Made by a program: the position numbers and the translations under genes | The notes under the pieces: generated by a model | Told to the model about the DNA's origin: nothing | Database searches by the model: none | The model's input: the letters and a program-made list of their open reading frames with translations, nothing else | Part shown: positions 2,641-63,520 of the stretch, one piece after another | Layout of the letters: each line of letters begins with the position of its first letter | How positions within the stretch are numbered: the first letter of the stretch is position 1 | Source of the DNA: Rhynchobatus australiae | Lineage: Eukaryota | Length of the DNA stretch: 64,000 nucleotides | Assembly (NCBI GenBank): GCA_034780895.1 | Contig: JAUZTB010000118.1 | Location: 12,211,888-12,275,887, forward strand | Direction of reading: 5' to 3'

Positions 2641-2939
2641 TAATTTTTAAGGAAGGTTTATGTTCCTGGATCGGAAGGGGTGAAAGGCTGTTGCATCTCC
2701 TGCAGTTGAACGGGAAGATGGCGTTAGGCGAGTGGGTGTTGCTAGATACGGTACGATAAAGACATTATGAGCCTTGAACGTGTTTGGTGAGGAGCAGCAC
2801 CATCGGGTTGGGAGCTCTCCACCACGAGTGCCATAATTGCAAGGAGGCGCCTCCAGCAGTAAGAAGCGATTTGGCGTGAACGACTAAAGTTAAGGAATGC
2901 AATAGAATAAGCATCGGTTCATACTTTCGGCTTCCTTGA

Positions 2940-3500
2940 AAGCCAGCAATGCTGAGGCGGGGTTTAGCGCACTGTCGGAGATTGGCACCTGTCATGACTG
3001 AAGCGGGCCAATGGACGAGGGGCGGAAGGGGCGCGTTGCTGGGAACAATACTCGCGCCTTTTGGAGGAGGAGCAGCGCGGATTGGTGATCGAGGGGAGTT
3101 GAGCGGCCGATCGGTGGTATTCCGTTGGTCCGTCAGCCGGTGATCGGTGGTACTCCGTTGGTCCGTCAGCGGCCTCGTTCACCAGGTAAACCCGCCGGTT
3201 ACTCCGCGTCCACGGAGGGGGCGGTTGTTCGAGGCCCCGCCGGCGGTGGCTGCCTGCCGTTCCCGGGCGGTTTCTCGGCTCCCGGGCGGTTTCTCCGGCT
3301 GGAGGGGGGACTGGGCTCCGGGCGGCCTCCGGTTTTAATGGGCGGCGGAGGGGCGAGGGCGGGAAGACACCGCAGGAAAAGATTAACGACCTGTTTCTGC
3401 GGAGGCGAAGAGGGCAACTTGGGGGAAGGGGGGAAGCTGCCCCACGTTCCCTATATCGGGAATGCAAGGCGGGCTGAGTATTTTAATCGTGCCCGCTAAG
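2940..3500 (+). promoter_or_regulatory. pik3r1: CpG-island promoter of pik3r1 (p85-alpha)
   Basis: The only CpG/GC-rich block in the window. CCAAT/ATTGG boxes at 2981, 3008 and 3081; GGGCGG at 3020, 3265 and 3284. Lies ~2 kb upstream of the first coding exon. Confidence 0.85.
3090..3185 (+). other. pik3r1: Putative non-coding exon 1 (start approximate)
   Basis: Donor CAG|GTAAAC at 3185/3186 inside the CpG island; the TSS cannot be fixed from sequence. Confidence 0.6.
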
Positions 3501-18667: not shown

Positions 18668-19770
18668 GAAACTTCAACNNNNNNNNNNACAATCTAAAAT
18701 CTGTTTCCTGGACTTCTATTCTCATCGTCTCTCCTCAGACAGATCAAGGATAGAGTTCCCCAATCCTTACTTTCCATCTCACCCTCACATTTAACAAATC
18801 ATCCTTCTTAATTTTGCCTTCAACGAGATTCCACCAGCAAATGCATCAACCCTTCCCTTTTCAGTATTCCAAAAGGATCATTCACTGTGCAATTCCCTGG
18901 TTTGCTCTTGCATCTGCACCAATCACTTCCCATCAAGGTACTTTGCTCTACATACAGCTTCAGGAGATGCCACATGACGATGAGAATAGAAGTCCAGGAA
19001 ACAGATTTTAGATTGTGATGTTGAAGTTTCTTTATCCTCTTCCCAGCATACAGGGACAGTTTTCTAGATGCAGCAGCGAATCATGTGCACTTCAAATCTA
19101 GTCTACTGCATGCAATGTTCATAATGTGGTCTTTTAGTTGGAGAAACCAGATGCAGATTGTGAGACTATTTTGCAGAGCACTTGCATTCAAGTCTGCTGG
19201 GGCAACCCTTTGCTTTGATTCTGTCGCATTCCCACTCTGACGTTCTGTTGATGGTCTCTGTACTGTGAAATTGAGATTCAGTGCAAGGCTGTGGAGCATT
19301 ATCTCATCCATCTGGTCACATTGCAACCTTGCAGTCTCTATATCAAATACAATTTTAGGGAAGAGTCTATTTGTAGCAGAATGAGTCATCTGATATTGGC
19401 TCAGTTTTTTTCCCCTCTCCACTATCATGGGCAGACTTGCTAGGCACTTCCTACATCTCTGCATTTCACAGCTTTTGTATATTTCTTTGTGTTTTCACTG
19501 TTGATCTTCACTCATTAACCTATCAACCAGATAGCTGCTTCAGTAGTTCATTGCCACAGCAACCCTGACCTTGCACTGTCAGAGAGATTCCCTCTGTCCT
19601 TACCCCATCCTCTGAAAATTAAAACCAGCATTTTCTCCTTTCCAGTTCTCCAGAAAGGGTCTTCGAATTGAAACATTAACTGTTTCTCTTTCCACAGGTA
19701 CTGTCTGAGCAGACAAATGCTCCTTGCATTTTCTGTTTGTATTTCAGGTATTCCAATGTGTATTTTTTGA
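18668..19770 (+). mobile_element. Degenerate Penelope-like element 3' half (RT C-terminus, GIY-YIG, 3' UTR)
   Basis: caaggatagagttccc...ttcaacgagattccacc...aaaggatcattc; tctagtctactgcat...gttggagaaaccagatgcagattg...tttgcagagcac; tail aagggtcttcgaattgaaacattaactgtttctctttccacag. Confidence 0.75.
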
Positions 19771-20859
19771 TTTTCATCAATATAATTAGTATAGAATGGG
19801 GGTGTTCTAAAGTGTGAATGGTTTAATATGATTGCAGGTTCTTACTATATGTTTATTTTGGAATTCACTTCAATGTAGCGTTTGTGGAATATAGTCTTGG
19901 GTGTGTTTGTAAACAGTAATTTTGTCATCATTTGTTACTACTTGCTGCTTAGTAATGGCGACTGACCTCCAGGTAATTCTTGCTATAATGCATAATTTAT
20001 AGATCAATAATTCTGACACTTTTGCAATATAAATTCTTTCATGTTTAAATTATATTTTGTCCATGCCTTTTTATGCTTTAAAATGGGAAAATTAGTTCAT
20101 TGGTTACAATACTACACTCAAAAGGAAACAGGATTGCGGAGAAATATTTATTGCATTTGATATACGTTGGTAATAATTTGAATTTGACTGAATAATGAAG
20201 GGCTGTTAGAGGTTCAGCTGCCTTTGTTTTGGAAAGTGGATTTGTTGATCTCTTTCAAGAAATGTGATTGGTTATGAAAGCTGAATTGGTTGGCTGCATT
20301 AGTGAAATATTCTGATGTTGCCTTGTCTAGATCTCTGAAATGAGTAGAAATGGGAGCTGCAGAGTACTTCTGTTAGAATTTCACAGTGCATCTGTTGGGA
20401 ATTGAAATCTTTTGGGCTTGCCAAAATACTAGTCTCAATAAACAACCTAAATAGTTTTCTCTGCCTTGAGCAGAAAAGTGACTTCAGCTTGAGACGTAAC
20501 ATAGTAGAGGACATGGTTTGCAATTATGTGGCCCTGTGTTCAATCCTCATCTTTTTCCTTGAGGTACAAATAATTTTTTAACATTACTGATGGCATGAAA
20601 AAGAACTTGTGTAACAAATTGTCATGATCTGGAATGTAATCCCTTAAAAGGGGGTGAAAGTTGAAGTATTTATCCAATTAACTTTCAATGGTTGATCAAG
20701 GTGGACATGTATTTTCTTTTAAAAAAAACCCTTTCATGATCTGGCTATCAGTGGCAGGCAGCATTTATTGCCTATCTCCAATTGGACTTTATCCTGGGAA
20801 CTTAAAACCAACACACCAATCTACTTTTTAATCTTTCATAACTCCCTAGATATGTTGAA

Positions 20860-44869: not shown

Positions 44870-44964
44870 TTCGGATACAAATCCTGAATATCTCACAAAA
44901 ATTATAGAAGTACTTATAGCCAGTGAATGCCACGAAACCCAGACTGCACAAGCACCAGCACCAG
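44870..44964 (+). CDS. pik3r1: p85-alpha exon 7 (end of BH domain)
   Basis: tctag|...SDTNPEYLTKIIEVLIASECHETQTAQAPAP...|gtaaga; 95 nt, phase 2-1. Confidence 0.92.
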
Positions 44965-46779
44965 GTAAGATTTGATATGATTGTTTGTTGCTCTCAAGAT
45001 TCAATATGACTCGCCTAAATGTTCAAAATATATGGCTTACGTGAGGCGGAATGGTGTTCTGATTCCAGCTAGATCACTGTTTTTGTATAAAGAACTAATC
45101 CAGTTTTACACCATTCATTTCTGAATAAAATTAGATTGTTAATGTAAATCTTAGTGCATTTGTTCCAGTAGAGTCAGTTTTCATTTTAGTTTGCTCTCAT
45201 TTAATAAGTTTTGTATTTGAAATTTATACTACAAGATGATTGACCTGGCACTGGATAATTTTGTTGTACAACTCTTAGTTTATTTAACAGAATCCCTCAA
45301 AATCTACATGTAGCCTATTTATTCTGCTCCCTAACATTATGTTGATAACTTTGGTGAAGCACTAACTTCGAGCTTTTTTAGTAGTTCTCATTTTTAATAT
45401 GTTCTAAAGTAATGATTTGGATGTGAAGCTGGTTAGCAAGAATGCCAAGTTCAATTATCTACCTGAAGAATTGTTTTCCTCACGTATAGTTTATCTTTTC
45501 CCATAATCATTTGAGCTTGCATATTAATCTTTAAAAATTTTAAAAGCTTTAAAATCTTTTTTTTTAAATTAAATGTTATGTGGAGAATATAGGGTATTCT
45601 TGGGTGCCCATTTCATTTCTTGATGCAAAACTGCTCTAATATGCACTTTGTTCTTTTGTACACTTCATTTATTATCAATGTAATTTCAATCAAAACTAGC
45701 CATCTGAGTAAAATGGGGAAATGATTTAATGTCCTTTCACTGATTAAGAGGGGTGTCGTAAGTGACCAGTTGCTAAACTAGATCTTCAGATATGTGACAT
45801 GGACTATCCTTGCAGGCGGAATCATTTTGTTTTCCTCCTGCCTGCATTTGTATTTTGGTGGGGTGACAGAGAAGCCCCCTTGACCTCAGTTCAGTTTTTA
45901 ATGAAGTAAAATGTTGAATCTTAATTTGAAATGGAACACTTGGTGCATGATTGAGACATTAAAATGTAGCCTTCTTTAATGACTTTTCACTGGTGGTGAA
46001 GGATGGTGGCAGCTATGAATGTAGTTTTGCTTCGTTGTCAGGGCAAACATCTCAGATATAGGAGTGGTGGAAAGTAGTCCACATGGCTGAGTCTTAAAGA
46101 TCCACTTGCATTCCCAATAGTGACCAGTGCATCGAAATTAACTTGTAAAACTCTGAAATTATTTGGGAGTCAGTGCTGGATACATCAATATCCACACTAA
46201 AAATATTTCTGAATGACTACTTGCATAGCTTCCATCTGTAATTATCCTGTCTTTAATTCAGCAGTTAAGTAGAAAATCAAACAATTGAATCATCTGCTGG
46301 GATTATTATTGGTGGTATAAGAAAAATTTGAGGCCTTTTGCTACATTTCTGCTTTCCCTTAACCATCATAGAAGTCTCTCAAATGGGAGTGTCATTTTTC
46401 TTGTATATAGCATTTATATAGCAGAAAACTGGAAAGCAAATTTGTACCATTCTTGGGATGCCTGATGAGTTATCCATAGTCTGTTTAAAATGTGGCTTAC
46501 CACTGAGTGGGTTTCAAAGTCCAATAGATGTAAAATTACCTTCTCAAAATGCTTTATTTATTACAGTGATATACTTAGTGCTATCAGTTATGTTTTTATA
46601 AATATTTGAAATCAAAATATTGTATTCTTTATCTCTTCTAATAAACCTTAATGCAAAAGGAACAAAACCTCATCTAAGTACATTATGTTCTTGTGGACTT
46701 CAACTTTCAGATAATTCCTGTTTTCTGAACAGATTCCAATTTCTATCATTCCTTTCCCATTCCTTTGGTCATCTTGGAT

Positions 46780-47065
46780 AATTATGTATTTGTACCTCCT
46801 CTGGACTTTACCTGACACTTATCCCTTTTTGGATATTTATTTTCTCTTGCCTTGCATTTTATCTTGCACCTTTTTTGCTGTGTTTCAATACTTTATTTCT
46901 CATTTTCTTATGAATGCCTGTCAATTGGAAATATTGCCTCCATTTCTCTTTGTACAGATGCTGCCTGACTTGGTACTTCCACCATTGTATGTTTGTATTT
47001 CAAACTAATTTAATGCAGCAAATCTGAAATGAAAACAGAAAATGCAGATCAGGTAGCATCTTTTT
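46780..47065. mobile_element. Penelope-derived fragments
   Basis: cagatgctgcctgacttgg...tatttca, followed by aaatctgaaatgaaaacagaaaatgc. Confidence 0.5.
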
Positions 47066-50000
47066 TTAAGAAATGCAAACTCTTACAGCTCTATAAACCC
47101 TGTAAGATGTCTGCAGTCCTCTAATTCTGGTCATCTGTGAATTTAATCACTTCTCCTTTGGCAGCCATGCCAGAAACGATCAGCTTTGGAAATCTTCCCT
47201 CAATTTCTTGTTTCTTTCTGTCCTTCTCCAAAATTATTCTTCATCTAAGCTTTGGTCATCAACACCATTACAGTTTTATGTAGTTCATTATCAACTTTTG
47301 TCTGAAAACCCTCCTGTGAGGGGCCTTCTGATGATTTACTTACAAGGTGCCTTTAAGGAACAGAGGTGGTTGTTTCTGATATCACCTGAGATCAGTTTGT
47401 TATCTGAACCNNNNNNNNNNNNNNNNNNNNNNNNNNNNNNNNNNNNNNNNNNNNNNNNNNNNNNNNNNNNNNNNNNNNNNNNNNNNNNNNNNNNNNNNNN
47501 NNNNNNNNNNNNNNNNNNNNNNNNNNNNNNNNNNNNNNNNNNNNNNNNNNNNNNNNNNNNNNNNNNNNNNNNNNNNNNNNNNNNNNNNNNNNNNNNNNNN
47601 NNNNNNNNNNNNNNNNNNNNNNNNNNNNNNNNTCTTCTACCTTTTTAACCCTACATTATATTTATCTTCCTACTCTTTGTTTTGGACTTCATACTTGGTC
47701 TTGGGTTACCAAGAAAATGAATTTGCCTTTGAGTCTAAGGAAAATTAAAGTGATAATACATTTTAAAAATCTTTTTGTAGCACTCCCCTCTCAAAAATCG
47801 TGTCCTTGTCACAATTTTTTCATAGGCACTCAATTTGGGGGTGATATATATGAATGAATTGTAGTTCCATTATTTAGAATTCATTGTTCAATGATGGTGT
47901 GTGAAATAAATGATAGTCATGTGCGTGAAATTGGACTTGGCTCACTTTTAGACATTAAGATTGCCTAGAGGTCCACAGTGGTATATATGACGTAGGAGTT
48001 GCTGCTGGATACCACATTGTTTGAGGGTGTTAGTTTGAGGCATCCACAGGAAGTATGCTGAGTAGGCAGATTATATCCATTAGTGTCCAATGCTGATTTG
48101 TTGCCAAAGCTGCCATTTTGAAGCTTGGTGCTAGTGCATACTCATTCTAATGCACTTTATTGAATATTCACTCAGAGCCAAAAGGACTCCAGTCTACATC
48201 ACCACCACTCCGAACAGTGTTATTTAAAGGTTCATGAATTATTTACAGTTTGGTTGATTTATTTCTTCATTGCTATATATCTGCAAGTGTTTTGTGGTTT
48301 TGAGAGGTGGTTTAAATTGCTGTTGTATGCAACCAGTAATGTAGCTTGCGCTGAAGGACTTCGGCTGTTCTTGGGCATCTGTACAAAGTGTTCCCAGACT
48401 TGATTCCATGGGATAGCATCTTTCCAACATAGCATGATATGAAAAATAGCTATAACTGTATAGGGTGTTCAAGGAGCAATTCTAATGAATCTCTGAAGAA
48501 AAGTATGAAATATTTATACTTCAATAAGGATGTCCTCGAATAAGGTAGAGCAAGGATATTATTGCCACTAGCTGACTATGAATTTTTTGTATCTGGCATC
48601 TTCCAGACTGGAGTGAGAAATATTTGTAATATCTCTGATTTCATCCACTTCTACATAATGATAATCACTGGTTCTCTATTCAAAAAATACCAACTGTAAT
48701 ATTCTGTCTTGTCAGAGACCAGCAGGAGGATTAGAGAAAAAATATGTGGCCTTGCAAGAATAGGTCTTCCCCATGTGACAGTGTGCAGTTGACTGCCAAT
48801 CATTTTTGTGGGCACTGAGTGAAAACTCTGCTGTATGCCAAAACCAAAAGAGATTACACTCCTTTAGTGTCCGGCTGATTATAGGATCATAGACAGTGAA
48901 TTATGCAACATGGGCTGCAAACCACCTTCCTGGCTTCACTCGTAATGTCTTCATTTCATGGACGCCATAACATAGTGATTCCAGAGCAAATGCCATATAG
49001 TGATAGCATAACAAAAGTTTCTAATGTCTAGTATAGATGTTGCTGGGCAACTTGCATATAGTGAAAGCTCTGCTGCTTCACAAAATGTGATAGAACACCA
49101 CTCTGAAGGGGTGCCTCCTTTGTTAAAGTGATTATCAAGATTTGTCTACTGTTTGCTGCACAACCTTTTTGCTATGAGAAAACTAGGTATGTGGTGAACC
49201 AGATGAGAAGTAGGAGGAGGAATTGCAACCGAGACAACTCCTTCCTGTCTGTGAAGTGCAGTTCCACTATTTGGGATCTCAATTCTCCATTTACAACCAT
49301 ATGCCTTCCTTTCTGTCGCTGCCCATAATGCTGCCTGCTCAGCCACAATGCAAAGTTGCCACAAATCAAATGATGCAAACCAGTTTGTAAGCTCATTAAT
49401 AGTGTTCAATGCAGAGTCTCAAGTTTCTTTGCTTGATCTAGTGTAACCTCACTGGGTGGAGCTTAGCTAGTGAAAGACTGCCTATTTACTTTTCCGGGGA
49501 AGACTGGTGGCTTTGCTGTTTGTCCTCCAAACAGGTCATGAGGCCTGGCTATGGACTCCTCCAGCTCAGCATGGGTAGCAGCAGTCCAGGCCAACTAGTT
49601 GACCAGCAGAGGTATCAATGGAGTAACAAGGGTGGGAGGACAAATGCTGTCCTGACAGAATATGGTTGGTTCATACCCCATTATAAACAGTATAGCCTCA
49701 AATTCAAATGATCACTTTGAAGGCTGGATTGCTTTGAGACATTGCAAGGTATTTTGCATTCTGATCTTCCATCTGTGGTGGCAGAAACCAGAATTTGGAT
49801 GTTTGTTCTCAGTGTTTGCTTGCTGTGTTCCTTGGAAGCTGCAACTTAAGGCACTGCATCAAATTGGTTCACAAGTTATGAAGCTGTTAGCTACCACAAG
49901 TTAGGCTCCAAGCTCTGTGCAAAGCCCTATACCAAATTTGTGTTGGACTTCTCTGTACTCATTGACCTTGCACACAAGATTTCTTGTAGACATTCCAATG

Positions 50001-50934
50001 TAACAAGTGTTTAATTTTGTACTTTGAGCATTTTTACATGTGGCATCTTATTGAAGTCCTTATCGGAGCCTACTGAGCAGGATGTGCGCATCTTAGCATT
50101 TAGCATTTGTGCACTCTTTACCACTGTAGCGTCTGAATCTCTTGCGGATTTCACCTCTATATAATGACAGGAGTGGCAATGTCGATTACTGAGCTGGTGG
50201 CTGAGCAAGTGAAATCAAGTATCTGTCTCATTTTATTCCTCTTGATGTGTTAACTGTTGGATACCTCAGGAACAAGGCATGGGACTAGAAGTTGTAGTGA
50301 ATGAAAAATGTTTGGGGTGGGGGAAAGAGAAAGGAATGCACCTTTGCACTTGACAATTTAAAAATCAGAAGTGTGCTTGAGTAAGGAAGAAGATTCTGTA
50401 TCACAACACTGTCGTCATTGATATTTCTAGCTCTTTTGGTAGCCATGGTCCAATGATGGCCAACGGTCTCTCTTGCATGCAGTTTGACCTGAAGGCGAAT
50501 TGAGTTGGTGAGTGGCGTGCAGTATTTGAGTCATGTGGATGTCCTGGGTGAACAGCTGACTCAGTAAATGCAATGAAATATGGCAGCACTGCTAAGATTT
50601 TGAGCATGCATGAATGTTTGGGATGAGTACTGAGAGGAAAATTTGGTAGTGAATGATATGGTGCTGTGTCTGGGGGAGTGCAGGTTAGCTTGTGGCAATA
50701 CAAGCCACTTAAAATGGTGATTTCCCCCCCCCCCCTCCTTTCCCCAACTGATTAAAGAATCTGTAAACAATATCTTTTAAAAGAAAGCTAGTGTCTGGGA
50801 TTGTACTAATACCAAGCCTTTCTAAAACTGGCAGGCTTATTGTCAGATGACCTGAAAAGTCCAAATCTAGTTCAAAGTTCATGTGCATCCAAGTTCCCTA
50901 ACCACAATTTTAGTTAGAATTTTAAGTTATGGGG

Positions 50935-51240
50935 GTAGTATTTTGAAGGACTATTGATGTGGAGAGGACTTCAAAGTCCATCATGGCAGCTGGGAAATTT
51001 GAGTAATTAAATCTGGAATAATAAAAACTAGTATTAGTAATGTTGACCATGAAACTGTTGTGTTGCTCTAAAAACCCATTTAGTTCACTATTGTCTATCA
51101 GATAAGGAAGTGCCATCCTTATCCAGTCTGACCGATATTTGACTCCAAAATGTTATTGTGGTTGACGCTTAACCATCTCAAGGGGAACTAGAGAGGCACA
51201 ATAAATTCCAACCTTGCTTGCATCCTGTCAACGAATAAAG
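50935..51240 (+). mobile_element. SINE sharing its 3' tail with the old LINE family
   Basis: catggcagctgggaaatttga...aaatctggaat...gaccatgaaac...aaaaacccatttagttcacta...tgactcca...tgtggttgacgcttaac...caataaat...gaataaa. Confidence 0.65.
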
Positions 51241-51329
51241 TAATTAAATCATTGAATCTGATTGTTGGATAACAAATGATCTGGCGCTTTTCATGCATGG
51301 ATTTTGGTAGTTATTGGTAAGCAATCGTT

Positions 51330-52600
51330 TATGGTCTATTTCTAATTCTTCTTGAGAAGGTGGTGGTCTTGAACTCCTACCTCTGTACCAAAGCAAATGC
51401 CCCAGTTCATTGGGAGGCAGTTTCAAGGATCTGGCTTAGCAGTTGGGTTAGAATGTGGTGGTCGTGGTTTTCATGTGTCTTCTATCCGCCTCTTCCTAGG
51501 TGATGGAGGTCATGAGTTGGGGAGATGCTATTGAGGACACCTTTTGAGTTGCAGTATATCTTGTAAATGATACAGACTGCAAACATAGTGAGCTGGAGTG
51601 GAAGGAGTGAATATTTAAAATTGGGTGCCAGTCAGGTGAACTGTAATATCCTGAGTGGTGATGATCTTTTTGCATTATTAGGAGCTGGACTTGTCCAGAT
51701 AAGTATAGAGCATTCCATCAGACTCTTTATGCCTTGTAGATGAAAAAAAATCATTGGATTAGTGGCTTGTACAGCCAGCCTTTGACCAGATCTTACAACC
51801 CCAATATTGGTTGTTCATTTAAAAGTTTCATCTTTAATGGTTCCAGGATGTTGGTGATTCATAAATAATGTCAAGAGGGAGGTGGTTTGATACTCTTGAT
51901 GTGAATTGACCAGTACTTTTGTGACAGGAATGTCACTTGCCACTTGTCAGAGCTATCTTAAATCTTGGGTCCTGATGTGTGGGAGCATGAACTTTCATTA
52001 TCTAAGGATCTGTGCATGTAATAGAACAAAATGCACTAAACACCAAACGTGACATTTCTGATGCTATGAAAGTTACTGAAACATCCTAAGATGTTTGGAT
52101 TTAGGAAGTCTTGCAGATTATACTGGAGCTGTGATGTTCTTTTTCCCCCTACAATAACTATCTTTCTTCCTTGCAATGTAAGACGGCAGCTAATGGAGAG
52201 TTTACTCCAACTTCTTATCAACTTCAGTTTTAAGAGCTCGTTAATGTCACACTTGGAGAAATGTTGATTTGGTATTAAACCCAGATTCCCTCAATTTACC
52301 CTTGGGTGAAATTAGGTTTTGTTTTCTGTGTTTGGACCAAAGCTTGCTTGAGGCCTCAAGCTGAGGACCTGGTGTAAAATTAAGCATCAATTAGTATTTT
52401 CTTGGAAAGTGATTTGTGTCAGTGCTGTTTACACCCCATTCCAATGTTTTGCAGGTGGTAAAAAGGAGGGCAATAAATGGCCAGATTTGGTTTGGAGTGT
52501 GGACAAGACATGACCTGTCATTTTCTGTGTTGTGTTTAAACAAAGTCATTAGGACACCAGTGTTGTTGGAACCCCTAACTTGAGCTCTATCTGCTCAGAT
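51330..52600 (-). mobile_element. Old LINE fragment (same family as 8510-9600)
   Basis: Shares cttgagaaggtggtgg, ttgttggagctg-like and tcacttgccacttgtcag segments with the 8510-9600 copy. Confidence 0.55.
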
Positions 52601-53330
52601 GTTTATTAATATCTTGGAAATCAAATTGACTGAAGACTAGTTACTGTGACAGAGACCTGAGAAAAGCCTATAAATGGGACAATGACAGTACTTTTGGTTG
52701 AAGATGGTTGTCTTGTTTTTGACTGTTATGATGAACCTTAGCACTGTTTAGGATACAAATGTTTTTAGAATGGCTGCTTCTGATTTGTCCATCCCCAATC
52801 ATATTTGGAAGTGGCAGGACCAATAATTTGTTTTGAACTGTAGAGCAAATTGAAGAGTTTTTTGGAGCATAACATTTCATATTAAGATAACTTTTCACTG
52901 GTGTGGAAGGTTAAATTAGAACAGTTCAGTTTTTTTATTGGGAGTATTTTTAAAATCTATGCGCTGAGTTGCCTGCCACGTGGGCATTTCTATTGAAATA
53001 CACTGAGGACTGAAATATGAGCTATCTAAAGTAGTGCAGTAATTTTTGTTCTGCACCTGTAGTCTGGCTTGAGGGGATTGATAGATTCTAAGTTGGACTG
53101 CTTGTGGAAGAAAGAAGGTTGAGGAAGGCTTTGATTGTATTTTTGCTGAACCAGCTTAGCTGCTTCCTGCATGTAGCTGCTAGAGATAGTCTCTGCAGAA
53201 AAGCAAACTATTTTAAGAAAGTTTGCAGTGTTTCTGAAATGGGCTTTAGTATTTTCTGTATTGGAAATACCACTTGAAGAATAACTTGGATTTTTGCTAA
53301 TGAAAGTTGATTCAAATTTCTAACTTGCAG

Positions 53331-53390
53331 CCTTCTCCTCCTCCTCTTCCTCCTCCTCCTTCCCATCATCTAACCTTCTTTCTCACCCCC
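53331..53390 (+). repeat. (CCT)n-rich polypyrimidine tract
   Basis: ccttctcctcctcctcttcctcctcctccttccc... Confidence 0.85.
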
Positions 53391-55049
53391 NNNNNNNNNN
53401 ATGCACAAAAAATAGAAATCCCAAACTCAGCAAATATTTGAGCTTGCCGAGGTTAATGTTTAATGAGAGATCTTTATCATTAGTTAAATGCAGACCACTG
53501 GCTGTGCTGGAAGTACAGACTTGGGTTCATTTTTTAATTATTAACTTTGTGCTCTGCAGAGGTACCTGCACCTTCATTGCAAAGAGTTCATACATAAGTT
53601 GCATGCATTTCTGGGGTGACTAATTACAAGAAACTAATGTTCGAATACGTTGCTTGGTGTTTTAACTGCAAGATGCTTCAAAACCTACCTTGAAATCACT
53701 TGGGGAAAGGCAGAAGCTGGTTGGCTTTAAGTTATTCTGCATTCATTTGTCTGGAATGTTATAGAGGAAGCTGTCTGAAAATAGTTCATCAAAAAACAAA
53801 AACCACATTGGTGGTGATGCACTATAAAATGTAAGCTTATCTATGAATGCATTCTTTTTAATGATCTGTTTTTATTTTTTCCTTACGAATTGCATTATGA
53901 CTTTTATTTCTTTGTTTACCTTCCCCAGCCCAACCACATCATCCCTGTCTTAGCATATAAGTGGCATTCAACTAAACCATGTGGAGGTAGTGGAAAATCA
54001 CCTGTCTGTTGGTTGTTCTGCCTATGCTGGCTTAGCATATGGTGGTGCAGTAACATTGGTTTGAGTTGAGTATTAACCTGATAGTACAAGTGTCCGCATC
54101 AAGGGCTTGGCTCTTTTGGTAAAGCCTTGAAGGTTTAAAATGTTCCCTGAGCTGGTTTCATAACTACAGATTAAAGTTTTTTTTTACACTACTGCTTACT
54201 GCTGTAAAAGTAATAACTTTGTGTGTTGCAGTTCATCGATGTATTTTTCTGCAGTGTTATGGTTTTAAATATGCTTTTTTAATATTATAATAAAAGTGTA
54301 ACTTTTAAAAACAGAATCCTCAATTGAGGAGAAACAAATGATCTGAACCGCAGCAGGTGCTTCCATGGCATTTAATGAAAACACTTGTTCAGTGTTGGAT
54401 TTTGTGCTTTTTAAAAAAAAACTTCCTGTTTCAATCTTCCTCCAGCAGACAGATGAATAACAGTAGAAAATATAAAGTTGTACATCTGTACTGTTCATAA
54501 ATGGTTTATTAAAAGCTTATATAGTTGGTTTTGCTTCGAGTTTGAATAGGTTCTTAATTGTATTTGGTTGAGTTTTTTGGCTGTTATTCCCATTGTGATA
54601 TTGATTACCAAGTGGCAATGTTGCAGTGAAGTCAGCTTTTGAGTGATGTTAAATGAAGGAATGTATCGTTGTGCTTTGATTTGGACCTACTTTCATCTTG
54701 AAAACTTACTAGGCGAAAGTGAATGCTTCATTCCAAACACTAAGGTATTTCAAGAGCAAAGCTTTATATATGTAAGCAAGTTTGTGCAGAGCTTCGCCCT
54801 CGGAGTATGTATGTGTGTATTCTTCCTGTTGGACTTTGCACTATTACCACCCATGCCTATATGGTTGCTTTATAAGGTCAGTTGATGCNNNNNNNNNNAA
54901 CTTTGTTAGATAATTTAACTGGGATTTATATTTTGTCAATTTTTAATGAATTATAGGTATTTTGAAATGTGCTGTATTTTAGTTCACCTTAGACTTGGTG
55001 TTCCAGGATTGAAATAGATTTAAAATAGTGTAAATCTTTCTAAATATTA

Positions 55050-55478
55050 ACACTTCTTGGAATGAACTAGCTGTGTCTGCTGCCAAATACATTGAGGAGC
55101 CTACGTGCTGCAGTTAAGGTTTTGTCAGCCTGCCAAAAGTGGGATGTACCAAACTGGAACCCATAAATGTGAAATAGAGAATTTTTAGTGTTAATATATT
55201 CTGCAGGATTTTGAATTGTATACTATTTCTGTTTAAATGTAGTTTTTCCATTTACTGAATTTTGAAATTGAAATATAAGATGATACTGAAATGCACTGCA
55301 TATAGGAAATGAGCAGGAGTGGTCTGGTGACATTATCTTGATTGGATTGGCTGTGGTGTATGATGTAAGAGGTTACAGTGCAGCCCTTCATAGGTTTTAA
55401 AATGAATTCCAAGACACCATTATAAAAAGACTGCATTTGTTCTTATGATTGACCCTGAACAGCAGTGCTTGAATCTTA
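55050..55478 (+). promoter_or_regulatory. pik3r1: Putative internal promoter for the p55-alpha isoform
   Basis: TTCTTGGAA at 55054, TACGTG at 55102, ATTGGATTGG at 55341, TGATGTAA at 55361 and TATAAAAA at 55421, directly upstream of the p55-alpha coding segment. Confidence 0.5.
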
Positions 55479-55584
55479 TTGTGCAATACTGTTTGGAATA
55501 TGGAAGAGCTAGAATTAGACTACCGTAGAACAGAACTTCACTGTGCCACAGATTTGATGTTTTACATAGAAATGGATCCACCAG
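55479..55584 (+). CDS. pik3r1: p55-alpha alternative first coding exon (TTG at 55479; first ATG at 55500)
   Basis: (L)CNTVWNMEELELDYRRTELHCATDLMFYIEMDPP matches the recalled p55-alpha N-terminus MYNTVWNMEDLDLEY...TDLMFYIEMDPP; donor CAG|GTAAAG, phase 1 to exon 8. Confidence 0.93.
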
Positions 55585-55907
55585 GTAAAGCTGCAATGAA
55601 ACCAAGCCAGCATTGGTTTTAATGTATATGTGTACAGTTTTTGCATATTAGAAACTTGTATGTTATCCTTTTTAAAAGTGAGCAATGCAGGTTATAGAAT
55701 ATTTTTAATCTGTCAGAAGAGGTATGTCATGTTTATTGTGAATGAGGAACATTTCCCACAACCCACATTTCTTCCCCCCCCCTCCCCCCCATCTCTTTGT
55801 ACCAGACCCATTAACTTAAGAGCTGTATGGGAATACTTTAGTTATTGCTTGTAATTCTATTTAACAACAGATAAAACTAGCTATATTTATCCTTGCAAGA
55901 ATGTTGA

Positions 55908-56046
55908 ATGACCAAAAGAAATTTTCCAAAAATGTTTTCTTGCTGTAAGGTTGATAAGCCGATGTTTAGCAAGATACATCACAGTAAATATTCCTTAGAG
56001 CTAACTGCTAATGTTAAAAGAGTACATTTAGAAAAAAAATACCAAG
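55908..56046 (+). CDS. Candidate unannotated alternative first coding exon (46 codons)
   Basis: ATG-initiated open frame ending CAAG|GTAAGT in phase 1, compatible with exon 8; no recognised homology. Confidence 0.4.
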
Positions 56047-57937
56047 GTAAGTGATTACCTAATAATGATTTTAAAGAAGCCTCTGAATCTGCACCAAAAA
56101 ATTGAACTTGTATTTAATAAGCATCCTAGTGATGTTTTATTGAGACCAGTGCAGGATTCATTTGACATTAAAATGATGTGCAATGTTAAATTCTAGTTTC
56201 ATGATACAAGGACTGAATTTTAAGAGGAAAGTTGCGCATTCCAGGATTGCTTGTGCAGTAGGAACTGAAGAATGTCTGTACTTCAGCAGCCAAATTGATG
56301 AAATGCTGCTTCACTTTAAACTCTAACGTTGACCTAATATCACAATGCTGATTTTTCTGCTTTTAATTTTAACCCTATTTTGATTTGTATATAGTTCCAA
56401 TTAACCACGCTGTAGAATATTTACCCTGAATTGTAACACTAATAAATTAGGAATAATATGCAGCTTTTAATCAGTAATCTGTTCTATGTTAAATTGTGTT
56501 TAAAATATATGGGGAAAATACAGTGGGTCTCTGAACAAATACAAGCAAGAATATTTTGTAAATTCATTTGAATTAGCTAACGTAGTCAAGGGTTTTTTAA
56601 TCTGCATTTTTAGATACCAATATTATATAATAGAGCCTGGTTCATTTTCTTTCCTGTGACATACTTAATGTGCAACTGAAAACCTATAAAGAGCCCGACT
56701 GTGTTTAGTGTCTGTATATTAATGACTAATCTTTGACGGTTTAATGTCCACTGGAGCTGAAAAAAATTCTGCAGTATTGTTTTTATTGGCTGTAGAATTT
56801 ATTTCTGTATGGTTCATTTAAAGAGCTTTTGAGCAGGGTTTCAGTGCAGTATCTTAACTCTTGCATAGCCATTTTCTTTTTTGCCTCCCCACCACCCCCC
56901 TCCCCCAAATCAAACAATTGAAGGACTTGAGTGGATCTGGAATACATTTTGATTTTTTTTGGTAAACCAAAGATTGGTAGGAGAGTATTTGAACGTTGAA
57001 GCAGAAACAGCTTTAATGTCAGATTTAATCTGACAGGTGTGCTAAGGTTTGCTGTATTGAATACCTCACTTATATATTAAAAAAATTTCAGTGACTTTAT
57101 TTCCTGATGCTATATAATCCCTGTTATGGTGATTATTTGAACATACTTTTGCTTGGGAAGCTTCTTAAATCCAGGTGTGTGTACTTTTTTCATACCTATT
57201 TGTTTTAAAAAGTGCTCTGGAATACTTTTGACTTAATTTGGTGCATGCTTTGACAATTGCTTTAGAACTTATTAACGTAAGTAATATGTGAGAATTGTCC
57301 TACAAAAAATAAGCCAAGGTATTTCAGTATAGAGCTAGACCAGCAATTAAGTTGCAATTGTGCACTGCCCATTATCAGTTAAAAGCATTTTGGAGCACCT
57401 TTGGTTTGCACTTACCCACATATAGAATTTATAGAGAAAAACTGGATTCTCCAAAGCTGAATTGGAGAGAGAGGCTCATTCTTATTGCAGTTTGTAATGT
57501 CTCCATATTGTGGAATGTTCTATTTCCTTGGGGTATATTTCCCTGGGCTGGAATAGTGTATTCAACCCCTGCATTTCAGTCATATTTAAATCAACCCCCT
57601 TAATTAAGTAATACTTGATTTCTAGTTTGTTGCCAAAGTGTGCTGTTAACACAAAATGATATATTCTTGTAAAGCTAAGCAGCATCCATTTTAACCATAA
57701 CCAACTGCAATGCTCTTAAAAACACTGTTACATTTAACTACTGTGTATGTAATTAAACATTTGAGAATAGCAAATTTAAAATGTATTCACTTTGATATTT
57801 GACGAAACTTCTGAAACCCTCACTATTATTCATATGGCTGGCGTGTTATTATAAAATGGATTTGTTATATTATAGAAAAAGAAGCATTTTAGTATTTTAA
57901 AATTGTTCTTAGGTTTCTTTATTTTCAATTCATGCAG

Positions 57938-58040
57938 CTTTGCCTCCGAAGCCACCAAAATCCACACCCGTAACTAATAACGGGATAAGTAGTAACATGT
58001 CTCTACAAGATGCTGAATGGTACTGGGGAGACATTTCAAG
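57938..58040 (+). CDS. pik3r1: Exon 8 (proline-rich region 2, start of nSH2); first exon common to all isoforms
   Basis: tgcag|...[35 protein letters not shown]|gtgagt; 103 nt. Confidence 0.97.
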
Positions 58041-58437: not shown

Positions 58438-58557
<120 letters not shown>

Positions 58558-58644
58558 TGAGTTTTCTGAATATTTATAAACTTTTCTTCACTTTTTGCCA
58601 AGTCACGATGTAGTGTTTTGCCAAACTTAAACTGGAAAATGTGA

Positions 58645-58863
<219 letters not shown>

Positions 58864-59703
58864 TGATGGTGGCATCAATTTAAGACAAATGTGCTTTGTT
58901 GGGCTTGTGCAGAGTTAAAGTCTGATTTCTTACCTTCACGATACAAAAGCAGTCCTCCTGAATTATAACAAGTTTTCTTTGTATTTAATATAAGTATAAA
59001 GGAAAGTTAATGATGTTGGGTCAGATCTTGCTAACAAGTGCCACTGCCTATGAACACCATCCATGGCCACCACATACCCATACATACAGCATACAGATGT
59101 ACAAGACCCAGCTTTCTGGCCCATTGGTATCCTGGCTCCAGCAGCGTAGACTCCCTAGCAGCACAATCTCCAATGGTGACTGATAGGCCTAGCATCTGAA
59201 ACGCTCTGTCAAAAGCTTTGACACTGACAAAATTCCACTATCAGCTTTGGTGGCTTTACCATCTGTGGTTAAATGTCCCTGATTATCCCTGATGTTCTGA
59301 AACTACATTCATTTATGATACAAGGAAGGCTTATCTTAAAACACATAATTTAACACATTTTACTCATTATTTTAGCCTAGGTTAAAGAAAGAAGGAATTT
59401 GCCTTCCTCTTCTAATCCTCATTAAAATCTACTGAAGTTGCAAATCTTGTGCCAGGTCCAACCTGGGGAATCTCAGCAGGACTGAGTTTGCCGTTGGACT
59501 CGCAGTGGGAAGCGAAAGATTCGACATTCTGAATCTGTCATTGAACTTTAGGACTTGTACAGAAGTCTTAGATTTCCATTTAAAGTGGCTAAAAATCAAT
59601 TCTCTTTGTTTGAAACTGCTAATATCTACCAGCAAGATCTGATTCATAAATGAGTTTTTTTCATTATGCCATGGGTTAACCCAATGTTTTTGGATGATGC
59701 TAG

Positions 59704-59982
<279 letters not shown>

Positions 59983-60093
59983 TGAATTGCTAATCATTCT
60001 CATTTAATAAAATTTTGTGTTTTTTAAACTGTAACAAAATTTGGTTACCAAACATGTTGAATTTGTTCGTTACTTTTTTTTATTTTCAATTAG

Positions 60094-60249
<156 letters not shown>

Positions 60250-60409
60250 TAACTTACTAGGTTTTGAGCAAAAACAAAGATGATATTTCATTTCCAGGCA
60301 ATTGTAAATGTTATGTAAAATCTCACTGTTTTATTTGAGATGTAGTTTGCAAGTATTTACACTAAGCTTGAAAGTAATTTCCGTGTCAGCTGTGGTGACA
60401 GTATGGAAG

Positions 60410-61148
60410 TCGGTACCACACAGAATGGTTTAGGCCTAGTTAATGGAAGGCTACATAAATGTATAGGAGAGAAGGAAATATAAAGTCATGGGAGAAGGTT
60501 CAAGTGGAGCATGAATGACATAGACTGGTTTAGGACTTTTCAATAATATTTATTTCATATAAAAATATAGTGCAGAAACCAATTACTTGGTCCAACTGGT
60601 CTATGCCCATATTTATATTCCAAATGAGCCTTAATGTTTGTTTTTCATAGACTCCAAGTTCCTCTTTTCTCATTGTCTATCCATATGCATGGAGCCTAAT
60701 TACATCAATCATAGCTGTTTCAACTGCTATGTGTAACAGCAGGTTCTGCATTCTTGCTGAGCAGTGTAAAGTAAACTTCTGCTAGATTCTTTGTGATGGC
60801 TATCTTTTCTTGTCTCACTGTGTTAGACTTGGCCACAATTGGAAACCAGTTTTTCCATGCCTGTCCAATTAAACCTCTTATTTTGAAGAACCTTCCTGTC
60901 TCTCATTCTTTTTCTTATCTCCAAAAGACGAAGATGATCAATAATCTGCTTTATCTTTTCTGATCGTTCTATCCTCAAGTTGTTAAACTTTTCTGTATTC
61001 ATTGCAGTGCTTCATTGTATTTTATGAAGTTCAGAAATGCACACACTACTCCAGATGTTGTGTAGTGTAGCTACATTCTATATAAATTACTATTTGCCAT
61101 ATAGTTGTTGGATTCAATTCCAGAGGAATAGAATCCAGTATTTACTCT
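60410..61148. mobile_element. Decayed CR1-like fragments
   Basis: ttggtccaactggtctatgcc...; cagaaatgcacacactactccagatgttg resemble minus-strand CR1 3' regions. Confidence 0.45.
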
Positions 61149-62401
61149 NNNNNNNNNNNNNNNNNNNNNNNNNNNNNNNNNNNNNNNNNNNNNNNNNNNN
61201 NNNNNNNNNNNNNNNNNNNNNNNNNNNNNNNNNNNNNNNNNNNNNNNNNNNNNNNNNNNNNNNNNNNNNNNNNNNNNNNNNNNNNNNNNNNNNNNNNNNN
61301 NNNNNNNNNNNNNNNNNNNNNNNNNNNNNNNNNNNNNNNNNNNNNNNNNNNNNNNNNNNNNNNNNNNNNNNNNNNNNNNNNNNNNNNNNNNNNNNNNNNN
61401 NNNNNNNNNNNNNNNNNNNNNNNNNNNNNNNNNNNNNNNNNNNNNNNNNNNNNNNNNNNNNNNNNNNNNNNNNNNNNNNNNNNNNNNNNNNNNNNNNNNN
61501 NNNNNNNNNNNNNNNNNNNNNNNNNNNNNNNNNNNNNNNNNNNNNNNNNNNNNNNNNNNNNNNNNNNNNNNNNNNNNNNNNNNNNNNNNNNNNNNNNNNN
61601 NNNNNNNNNNNNNNNNNNNNNNNNNNNNNNNNNNNNNNNNNNNNNNNNNNNNNNNNNNNNNNNNNNNNNNNNNNNNNNNNNNNNNNNNNNNNNNNNNNNT
61701 TTTATCTACTTTTTCCTTTTGATTCTTAGAATTAATTAAGGTTGTGTAAAAACTATTTTGGGAATCCATGTAAACTATTCGTTTTCATTTCGTCTTCTAG
61801 ATGTTTTGTCATCTCTTTACCATAATGCCTCTAGTGTCTTGCCTGTTTAAAAATAAAAGATCAAGACAAATGGTCTGAGGTGGCAACTAATCCAGGAACT
61901 TTTTTTTGTTTGAAAGTATGAATTACATTCCTGACTGTCCACCCTCTATCATTCAATTTTCCACGTTGAACTAGTATCTAAATATTATAAGATTATATGT
62001 TCCATCTGGTAATGCAATCCTTTTGAACCTGGGATCTTCCCCCACCCCCCCAACTTTTTTTTAAACTTACTATTGTAACATTCTTTCTTAACTTTGAAAG
62101 CTCAGATAAAATATTTCCATTTTCTTGATGCAGTTTCAATTTGACTATGGGGTTATCTAGCTTGACTCTTGGCTTGCTACATTTTATATTTACTTATTTT
62201 ATAGTAGAATATTTTTGTTTAATAGTCTGCAATATTTTCATTTTCCTTTATTGCTTAACTGTCAGTCATCAGTTTTCTGAGTCATCTGTATGGTTTTTGA
62301 TTTTCCCAGCTACATCAGATTTTTAGTGTAATGTATTTCAGAAAGTCTAGTTTTGAACCATTTCAAAAGGCTGGATTTCTTTGTTGTGATGACATAAGTG
62401 A

Positions 62402-62662
<261 letters not shown>

Positions 62663-62694
62663 TAAGCAAAATACCTAATGGTCATTTAAACTTC

Positions 62695-62810
62695 ATGGTG
62701 CTGGAAATACTTGGGAGGTGAGGCAGAATGTCTCCATAGATGCTGCCTGACTTGCTGGGTATTTCCAGCATTTTGTTTCAATTTCACATTTCCAATATCC
62801 ACATTATTTC
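62695..62810. mobile_element. Short Penelope-derived fold-back remnant
   Basis: tgctggaaatac...aggcag followed by ctgcctgac...gtatttccagca (complementary halves). Confidence 0.6.
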
Positions 62811-63169
62811 GGGCTTTGAAACTTTCTTTTTCATTATTAGAAAACAAATGTGTAGCAGTCAAATGAGTATAACTTAAGCATAATTTGCTTCATAATATTT
62901 GGGTTGTAATCTTTAGTGTTATCGTTTAGAATAGAATACATATTGCATTTTGTTTCACTGGCGAGAAATAAAATTAACACCTTCGGTATGACAGTTGACT
63001 ACCAATGCAGAGTTTGTGATTGTGATATCAAAAACATCAGCAGCCATAACTAGATTGTTCCTTTACCCAATGTAGTAATGTAAGGAGATTATAAGTAATG
63101 ACTTAAGTATCACACCTACTTGCTCAATAATAATTCACTTCCATCAATTTTACTTTTTTATTCTTAAAG

Positions 63170-63244
63170 GTGGTTGACGCAAAAGGGAGTTCGACAAAAG
63201 AAGATTAATGAGTGGCTTGGCATTAAGAATGAGAATGCTGAAGA
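63170..63244 (+). CDS. pik3r1: Exon 14 (end of iSH2)
   Basis: taaag|...WLTQKGVRQKKINEWLGIKNENAE...|gtaagt; 75 nt. Confidence 0.95.
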
Positions 63245-63349
63245 GTAAGTGACTTTCATTTTTAACTACTTTTAAAAAAGGCAATGCACAACTTTTTCAT
63301 GGTGCTTTTTTCCATTTTGATGCTTTAACAGTAAATGTTTTTGTTTTAG

Positions 63350-63520
63350 TCAATACTCTATGGTGGAGGATGATGAAGATCTACCTCATCACGATGAACG
63401 AACTTGGAATGTAGGGAGTATTAACAGGACTCGAGCAGAGAGCCTTCTAAGAGGAAAACGGGATGGAACGTTCTTGGTCCGAGAAAGTAGCAAGCCCGGC
63501 TGTTACGCATGCTCAGTCGT
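63350..63520 (+). CDS. pik3r1: Exon 15 (Tyr607/Ser608 region, first half of cSH2); final exon is outside the window
   Basis: tttag|...[22 protein letters not shown]...[20 protein letters not shown]|gtatgt; 171 nt. Confidence 0.96.

Follow-up and report, generated by a model that had tools for sequence, protein, structure and literature searches.

The window analysed here is a stretch of 64,000 nucleotides from Rhynchobatus australiae (contig JAUZTB010000118.1), and it carries pik3r1 on its plus strand. The coding exons of the gene were mapped from 5512 to 63520 by TBLASTN with named chondrichthyan proteins; the last pik3r1 exon lies beyond the end of the window, and the open-frame joins described below end with exon 15. 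The last p85-specific exon (44870..44964, plus strand) has its phase-1 donor at 44965. The intron that follows (44965-57937; 12,973 nt) contains the p55-alpha exon and leads into the first common exon, exon 8 (57938..58040, plus strand), which has a phase-1 acceptor and encodes a proline-rich motif and the start of the nSH2 domain. Common exons 9-15 (58458..63520, plus strand) encode the nSH2, the iSH2 and part of the cSH2. Over exons 8-15, residue identity to PIK3R1 proteins was 353/357 for Mustelus, 351/357 for Narcine and 350/357 for Pristiophorus; the number of identical residues was 340 for the chimaera protein and 332/355 for Latimeria. The available excerpt of PMC13155144 gives 11,252 nt for the human counterpart of this intron, a similar size, and places human p55-alpha 1,424 nt from the common exon; in the window the distance from the p55 exon to exon 8 is 2,353 nt.

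Exon 8 also contains an in-frame ATG at 57997, with A at position -3, just before the nSH2. Through this ATG any non-coding first exon joined to exon 8 could give a minimal nSH2-iSH2-cSH2 subunit. Upstream of pik3r1, the minus strand carries a fragment of a LINE-type endonuclease domain (713-1201; Pfam PF14529, E 8.8e-11). Open reading frames rich in Pro, Arg, Gly and Ala at 2765-3499 mark GC-rich sequence some 2 kb before the p85 start codon, probably the p85 promoter or first exon.

The p55-alpha exon and the search for a p50-alpha exon

The first coding exon of p55-alpha lies at 55479..55584 on the plus strand and ends at a donor with a score of 4.22. Where the sawshark and whale shark proteins have Met1 the window has TTG (55479), and a TGA stands in frame at 55470. 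The earliest ATG in frame within the exon is 55500, as in the annotated Narcine protein. An out-of-frame ORF of 27 codons (55445-55528) overlaps this ATG and could damp p55 translation. When the p55 exon was used as a query, 33 proteins were matched, from sharks to mammals.

A p50-alpha first exon was not located in the intron 44965-57937. With a human p50 primer from the literature the best local score in the intron was 23, where the background was 22; the control primer for p55 reached 38 at its own exon. A p50-alpha exon could be concealed in one of three N gaps (47411-47632, 53391-53400 and 54889-54898). An ATG with a donor-like GTAAGC at 53817-53830 was considered as a p50-alpha exon and rejected, since it is out of frame with exon 8. 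At 49174-49192 an ATG frame of four codons (to 49186) runs to a phase-1 donor with a score of 4.6 and continues open into exon 8. Besides p55 and the candidate described in the next section, this is the sole phase-1 ATG-bearing donor in the intron scoring at least 4.2; two such donors of at least p55 strength were thus observed besides p55, with 1.37 expected from simulation. The 49174-49192 site is p50-like in size and within chance expectation. The apparent absence of p50-alpha makes it more likely a priori that another first exon exists, without pointing to the candidate. Allowing for the offset between genome builds, human p50-alpha appears to lie upstream of p55-alpha. The positions of the human p50-alpha promoter and of p55-alpha are given in different genome builds in the excerpts of PMC6815964 and PMC13155144, and the unique N-termini of p55-alpha and p50-alpha are 34 and 6 residues long according to the accessible part of bioRxiv 10.1101/2025.10.16.682970.

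A 46-codon frame that ends at a strong donor sequence

The candidate coding segment (55908..56046, plus strand) starts 324 nt beyond the end of the p55 exon (last base 55584). From the ATG at 55908 to 56046 it measures 139 nt, that is, 46 codons plus 1 nt (phase 1), and further in-frame ATGs are found at 55932 and 55962. It ends in a donor-consensus site, AAG/GTAAGT (56044..56052, plus strand, cut between 56046 and 56047), with a score of 8.75. The initial annotation had put this segment forward as the first exon of a short PI3K regulatory isoform. The three ATGs, the phase-1 donor CAAG/GTAAGT and the 324 nt spacing that it gave were all confirmed from the sequence, and so was the in-frame join to exon 8: when the 55908 frame was joined by coordinates to exons 8-15, there was no stop over 404 codons. 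The segment therefore has the layout of a short isoform, an ATG frame in the alternative-first-exon intron that runs to a phase-1 donor and is open through nSH2-iSH2-cSH2 within the window. Scored with a generic position-weight matrix, whose weights came from general knowledge, the candidate donor was the highest of the 15 GT sites scoring at least 3 in the intron 44965-57937 and exceeded all 11 real donors scored (0.77-8.0); two more donor positions, which were off by a base, are left out of this count. The predicted peptide has a net charge of +8 and a Cys-Cys pair, at codons 12-13 when counted from 55908 and 4-5 when counted from 55932. This anatomy (intron position, phase, very strong donor and open join) fits a new first exon.

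The chance expectation was obtained from a 30-Mb order-3 Markov simulation of the pik3r1 introns with the candidate removed, and counts were expressed per 12,973 nt. A donor scoring at least 8 was by itself expected 0.11 times per intron. For a donor preceded in frame by an ATG 38 or more codons away, the expectation was 0.0026 per intron at donor scores of at least 8, 0.010 for at least 7, 0.07 for at least 5 and 0.14 for at least 4.2 (the strength of the p55 donor); the thresholds were chosen after the candidate had been seen. The values per 56 kb of intron were 0.011, 0.045, 0.31 and 0.59, respectively, and smaller samples yielded comparable figures. Given the donor, a long open frame would arise by chance in about 2-3% of cases, and none of the five other non-exon donors scoring at least 7 in the window (one on the plus strand and four on the minus strand) had an ATG at least 28 codons upstream. 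The combination of donor and frame is uncommon, yet a scan of many windows would meet such cases. The caveat attached to the original proposal, that the exon could be a chance occurrence, is answered only in part: the combination is rare at strict thresholds (0.003-0.01) and less so at p55-donor strength (0.14).

The features of the peptide were compared with those of intron sequence. Cys-Cys was present in 19/189 stop-free intron stretches (10%) and a net charge of +8 was attained in 3 of the 189, while a Met within six residues before the Cys-Cys was found in 4% of 317 simulated exons. The GC content of the candidate was 30%, compared with 36% for introns, 38% for the p55 exon and 42% for exons. 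Coding scores came from 3-periodic Markov models trained on 14 exons, which have low power on 46 codons: 27% (order 1) and 34% (order 2) of the stop-free intron stretches (n = 190) scored at least as high as the candidate, and 12/14 (order 1) and 14/14 (order 2) of the real exons scored above it when left out of the training. A young exon would look intronic by this score. The A-rich skew of the candidate is exon-like; its A-over-T skew of 0.18 was attained by 12/363 intron windows and its purine share by 32/363. A single-sequence AlphaFold model of the peptide (helix 20-44, pTM 0.36) and a hydrophobic moment maximum of 0.58 at residues 4-14 were both obtained with no control and carry no evidential weight.

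The surroundings of the start codons were also inspected. An in-frame TGA (55905..55907, plus strand) directly precedes the ATG at 55908, which has T at -3; the ATG at 55932 has A at -3. An out-of-frame ORF of 15 codons (55901..55948, plus strand, A at -3) overlaps both ATGs and ends beyond both of these Cys-Cys-bearing starts, and the third in-frame ATG (55962) lies past the cysteines. The stretch from the p55 donor to 55907 contains ten ATGs. Upstream of the candidate on the plus strand, a WGATAR site at 55869 (stretch 55869..55889; 0.43 expected per 346 nt) and a one-mismatch TATA-like site at 55882 (0.17 expected per 346 nt) are both near chance level. A CCCTCCCC-type C-box at 55779-55780 has an expectation of 0.01, and similar C-tracts occur elsewhere in the intron, at about 50725 and 56890. 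CpG enrichment was absent (o/e 0.13-0.24). A sigma-70 promoter scan was set aside as inapplicable to a vertebrate gene. With regard to a repeat origin, self-BLAST of 55601-57930 returned short simple-sequence matches only, and no tandem repeat was found over the candidate; an exonised transposon could escape these comparisons. Rfam gave a single chance match over the intron (E 0.74).

Search for relatives of the candidate N-terminus among known proteins

The candidate peptide shared three 5-residue words with no protein of 82-2000 aa, gave 0 matches at E<=0.001 in a HMMER search of 1.84 billion representatives, and had no usable Atlas match and no Pfam family. Proteins of peptide-like length (about 25-80 aa) were covered by the HMMER search only. 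For a comparison at the level of the isoform, the p55 exon and sawshark residues 30-75 served as queries, the latter yielding the best 120 of 1236 matches, which are cluster representatives. The two queries gave 121 proteins, of which the 117 named, nearly all labelled PIK3R1, were examined and 4 unnamed were left out; chondrichthyans account for 7 rows from 5 species, one of them called chimaera by its identical N-terminus. The candidate N-terminus preceded exon-8 sequence in 0/117 named proteins among the matches listed, and a six-frame comparison of the whole intron with the 117 gave matches at the p55 exon only. For an isoform devoid of the p55 N-terminus the expected scores are 81.0 bits in sawshark, 76.9 bits in electric ray and 77.4 bits in the window. 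Since the floor of the matches listed was about 75.6 bits, a short isoform scoring 76.9-81.0 bits should rank among them if it is a cluster representative. The sawshark p55 cluster has 23 other members outside this comparison, and a lineage- or tissue-restricted exon would be missed by it.

The numbering of RefSeq isoforms points in the same direction. In 15/15 same-gene pairs among the matches listed, the lower X number belonged to the longer protein, and p55-alpha is isoform X2 in both sawshark (456 aa) and electric ray (449 aa). Neither elasmobranch annotation therefore seems to have a slot for an isoform of 459-467 aa; the argument assumes that X1 is p85, and a 449-aa form and unsampled tissues fall outside it.

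Three peptide motifs from the candidate appeared in no paper of the literature searched, which is mostly without subscription papers. In the excerpts returned, nothing relevant to the candidate was found on pik3r1 in elasmobranchs, sharks or cartilaginous fish or on the naming of its exons, and nothing on the candidate was found under palmitoylation of PI3K regulatory subunits.

Competing readings and comparison with known systems

The evidence can be read in three ways, and the weights that we give them are judgements from counts, not computed posteriors. We see an even chance that the candidate is an unused pseudo-exon. The donor at 56046 would then be cryptic, either unused or used at noise level, for want of a promoter or functional acceptor to define an exon there, and transcripts from the p85 and p55 promoters would be spliced past the candidate and into exon 8. 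An A/T-rich intron (AAA and TGY codons) would account for the 46-codon frame with its lysines and Cys-Cys as by-products, and no such protein would be made. Taken indirectly, the evidence is rather against a conserved coding exon: no homologue was found, the N-terminus was present in 0/117 named proteins among the matches listed, the isoform numbering seems to leave no slot for it, the composition is intron-like and the start context is poor. A chance look-alike is at least as likely as a used exon; the matter is unproven and our interpretation leans negative. On this most likely reading the candidate is an ordinary cryptic donor, of little consequence.

A second reading, doubtful but possible, is that the segment is a lineage- or tissue-restricted alternative first exon that is translated and gives a third short subunit of 449-467 aa, depending on the start. 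A promoter in 55620-55900 would fire and the donor at 56046 would be spliced to 57938. With transcription starting roughly 30 nt downstream of the TATA-like site, near 55910, the ATG at 55932 would come first, the Cys-Cys would stand at residues 4-5, and S-palmitoylation together with the basic segment could keep inhibited PI3K at membranes. The strength of the donor, which ranks first in the intron and exceeds the 11 real donors scored, argues for such an exon, as do the low chance expectation (0.003-0.010 per intron at donor scores of at least 7-8) and the open join to exons 8-15, but the coding score is intron-like. The setting is also favourable: the excerpts of PMC13155144 and PMC6815964 describe this as an alternative-promoter intron, mammals have two alternative first exons there, and no p50-alpha exon was located in the intron of the window. 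However, no homologue or annotated isoform was found among the matches listed, and the RefSeq isoform numbering in two elasmobranchs counts against one. The C-box, GATA and TATA-like sites upstream are consistent with a promoter, although the latter two are near chance level and the C-tracts are repeated at about 50725 and 56890. The out-of-frame ATG at 55901 would favour a restart at 55962, which gives a protein without Cys-Cys. A precedent for an exon of this kind is offered by Gab1-beta (PMC6176924, excerpt), discussed below.

The third reading, which we regard as unlikely, is a non-productive splice element: either an internal exon of 241 nt (55806-56046) or a stronger alternative donor for p55. 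A C-rich pyrimidine tract ending in CAG (55760..55805, plus strand), which also holds the C-box, forms a candidate acceptor between 55805 and 55806 with a score of 7.5. Together with the donor at 56046 it defines the putative 241-nt exon, whose length is not a multiple of three. Every frame of it contains a stop, and if it followed the p55 exon or exon 7 in a transcript, p55 or p85 would be cut short within five codons. The premature stop would lie far upstream of later junctions and lead to NMD or to a barely translated message, and the 46-codon frame would be incidental or reached by rare re-initiation only. The weak p55 donor (4.22) and the ten ATGs between it and 55908 are in line with this reading. 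High acceptor scores are infrequent, with 13/3172 intronic AGs scoring at least 7.3 and 6% of 7,247 sampled intron positions having such an acceptor 50-300 nt upstream, and the 55806/56046 pair is the best acceptor-donor pair on the plus strand (sum 16.3). However, the acceptor model favours C-rich tracts and gives the 13 real pik3r1 acceptors only -6.3 to 4.9, and 1/13 minus-strand control pairs outscored the candidate pair (17.6 vs 16.3). Under this reading the long open frame would also be a coincidence (about 2-3% once the donor is given), and the excerpts found for PIK3R1 and 'poison exon' came from a single, unrelated review. The next-best non-annotated pair on the plus strand, 19698-19972 (275 nt, scores 8.2 and 5.6), lies in the long intron after exon 2. 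Frame-preserving cassettes were considered as well: one of 147 nt from 55900 meets an immediate stop, and one of 48 nt (55999-56046) is open in frame after the p55 exon but has a weak acceptor (-4.1) and was judged unlikely.

Known short-isoform exons probably do not account for the candidate. It was rejected as a p55-alpha orthologue, since it gave no phmmer match to the 117 named proteins, in keeping with the dissimilarity to p55-alpha claimed at the outset, and the p55 exon is separate at 55479-55584; it is probably not the p50-alpha exon either, as it has 28-46 codons and lies downstream of p55, whereas the unique N-terminus of p50-alpha has 6 residues.

Adjacent N-terminal cysteines with basic neighbours can be S-palmitoylated. 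The candidate has adjacent cysteines near its N-terminus with basic and hydrophobic neighbours, a pair that is common by chance, and as judged from its sequence it would be a fair palmitoylation candidate if translated from 55908 or 55932. The full proposal, a third intronic promoter driving a subunit that starts at 55932 and is held by a dually palmitoylated, polybasic anchor in elasmobranchs, for which no p50-alpha exon was located, strikes us as quite improbable. If it were true, the class IA regulatory subunits would number six, and the new one would carry its own lipid anchor, a kind not described in the excerpts of the literature searched. According to the accessible part of bioRxiv 10.1101/2025.10.16.682970, all five known subunits inhibit p110-alpha via nSH2 and iSH2 until phosphotyrosine motifs bind, and they recruit p110-alpha to membranes equally in vitro. 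Because a subunit that bears the nSH2 inhibits until such motifs bind, a tether would localise p110 and would not activate it. The suggestion that the anchor could localise p110 without receptor docking was therefore overstated: with the nSH2 kept, the enzyme would be pre-positioned and inhibited, and receptor input would still be needed. The resulting enzyme would be a class IA PI3K with a natural lipid anchor. Kept inhibited at the membrane, it would be primed to respond to phosphotyrosine motifs and Ras faster or at a lower threshold, and it would show whether residence at the membrane is by itself enough to shift the activation threshold while nSH2 inhibition is intact.

Like the first exons of PIK3R1 p55-alpha and p50-alpha, the candidate lies in the intron that separates the BH-domain exons from the common nSH2 exon and joins in phase 1, and its product would likewise consist of a unique N-terminus followed by the proline-rich motif and nSH2-iSH2-cSH2. 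It shows no sequence similarity to p55-alpha, whose exon was found from sharks to mammals, and no relatives of it were found; unlike human p50-alpha, which appears to lie upstream of p55, it is downstream of the p55 exon. In its acceptor-like tract and strong donor 241 nt apart, with stops in all frames, it resembles cryptic pseudo-exons and poison cassette exons; among the latter, regulated examples usually show strong DNA conservation. Like GAP-43 and the G-alpha-q family, it has adjacent cysteines near the N-terminus flanked by basic and hydrophobic residues; the motifs of those proteins are conserved and tested, whereas Cys-Cys of the candidate's kind occurs in 10% of stop-free intron stretches. 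A parallel in the PI3K pathway is Gab1-beta of mouse ES cells (PMC6176924, excerpt), in which an intronic promoter and a new first exon drop the N-terminal module of an adaptor, and exposed N-terminal cysteines were shown experimentally to be palmitoylated and to give constitutive membrane targeting. The Gab1-beta exon is non-coding and its cysteines come from an existing exon, whereas those of the candidate would come from the new exon itself and are predicted from sequence alone.
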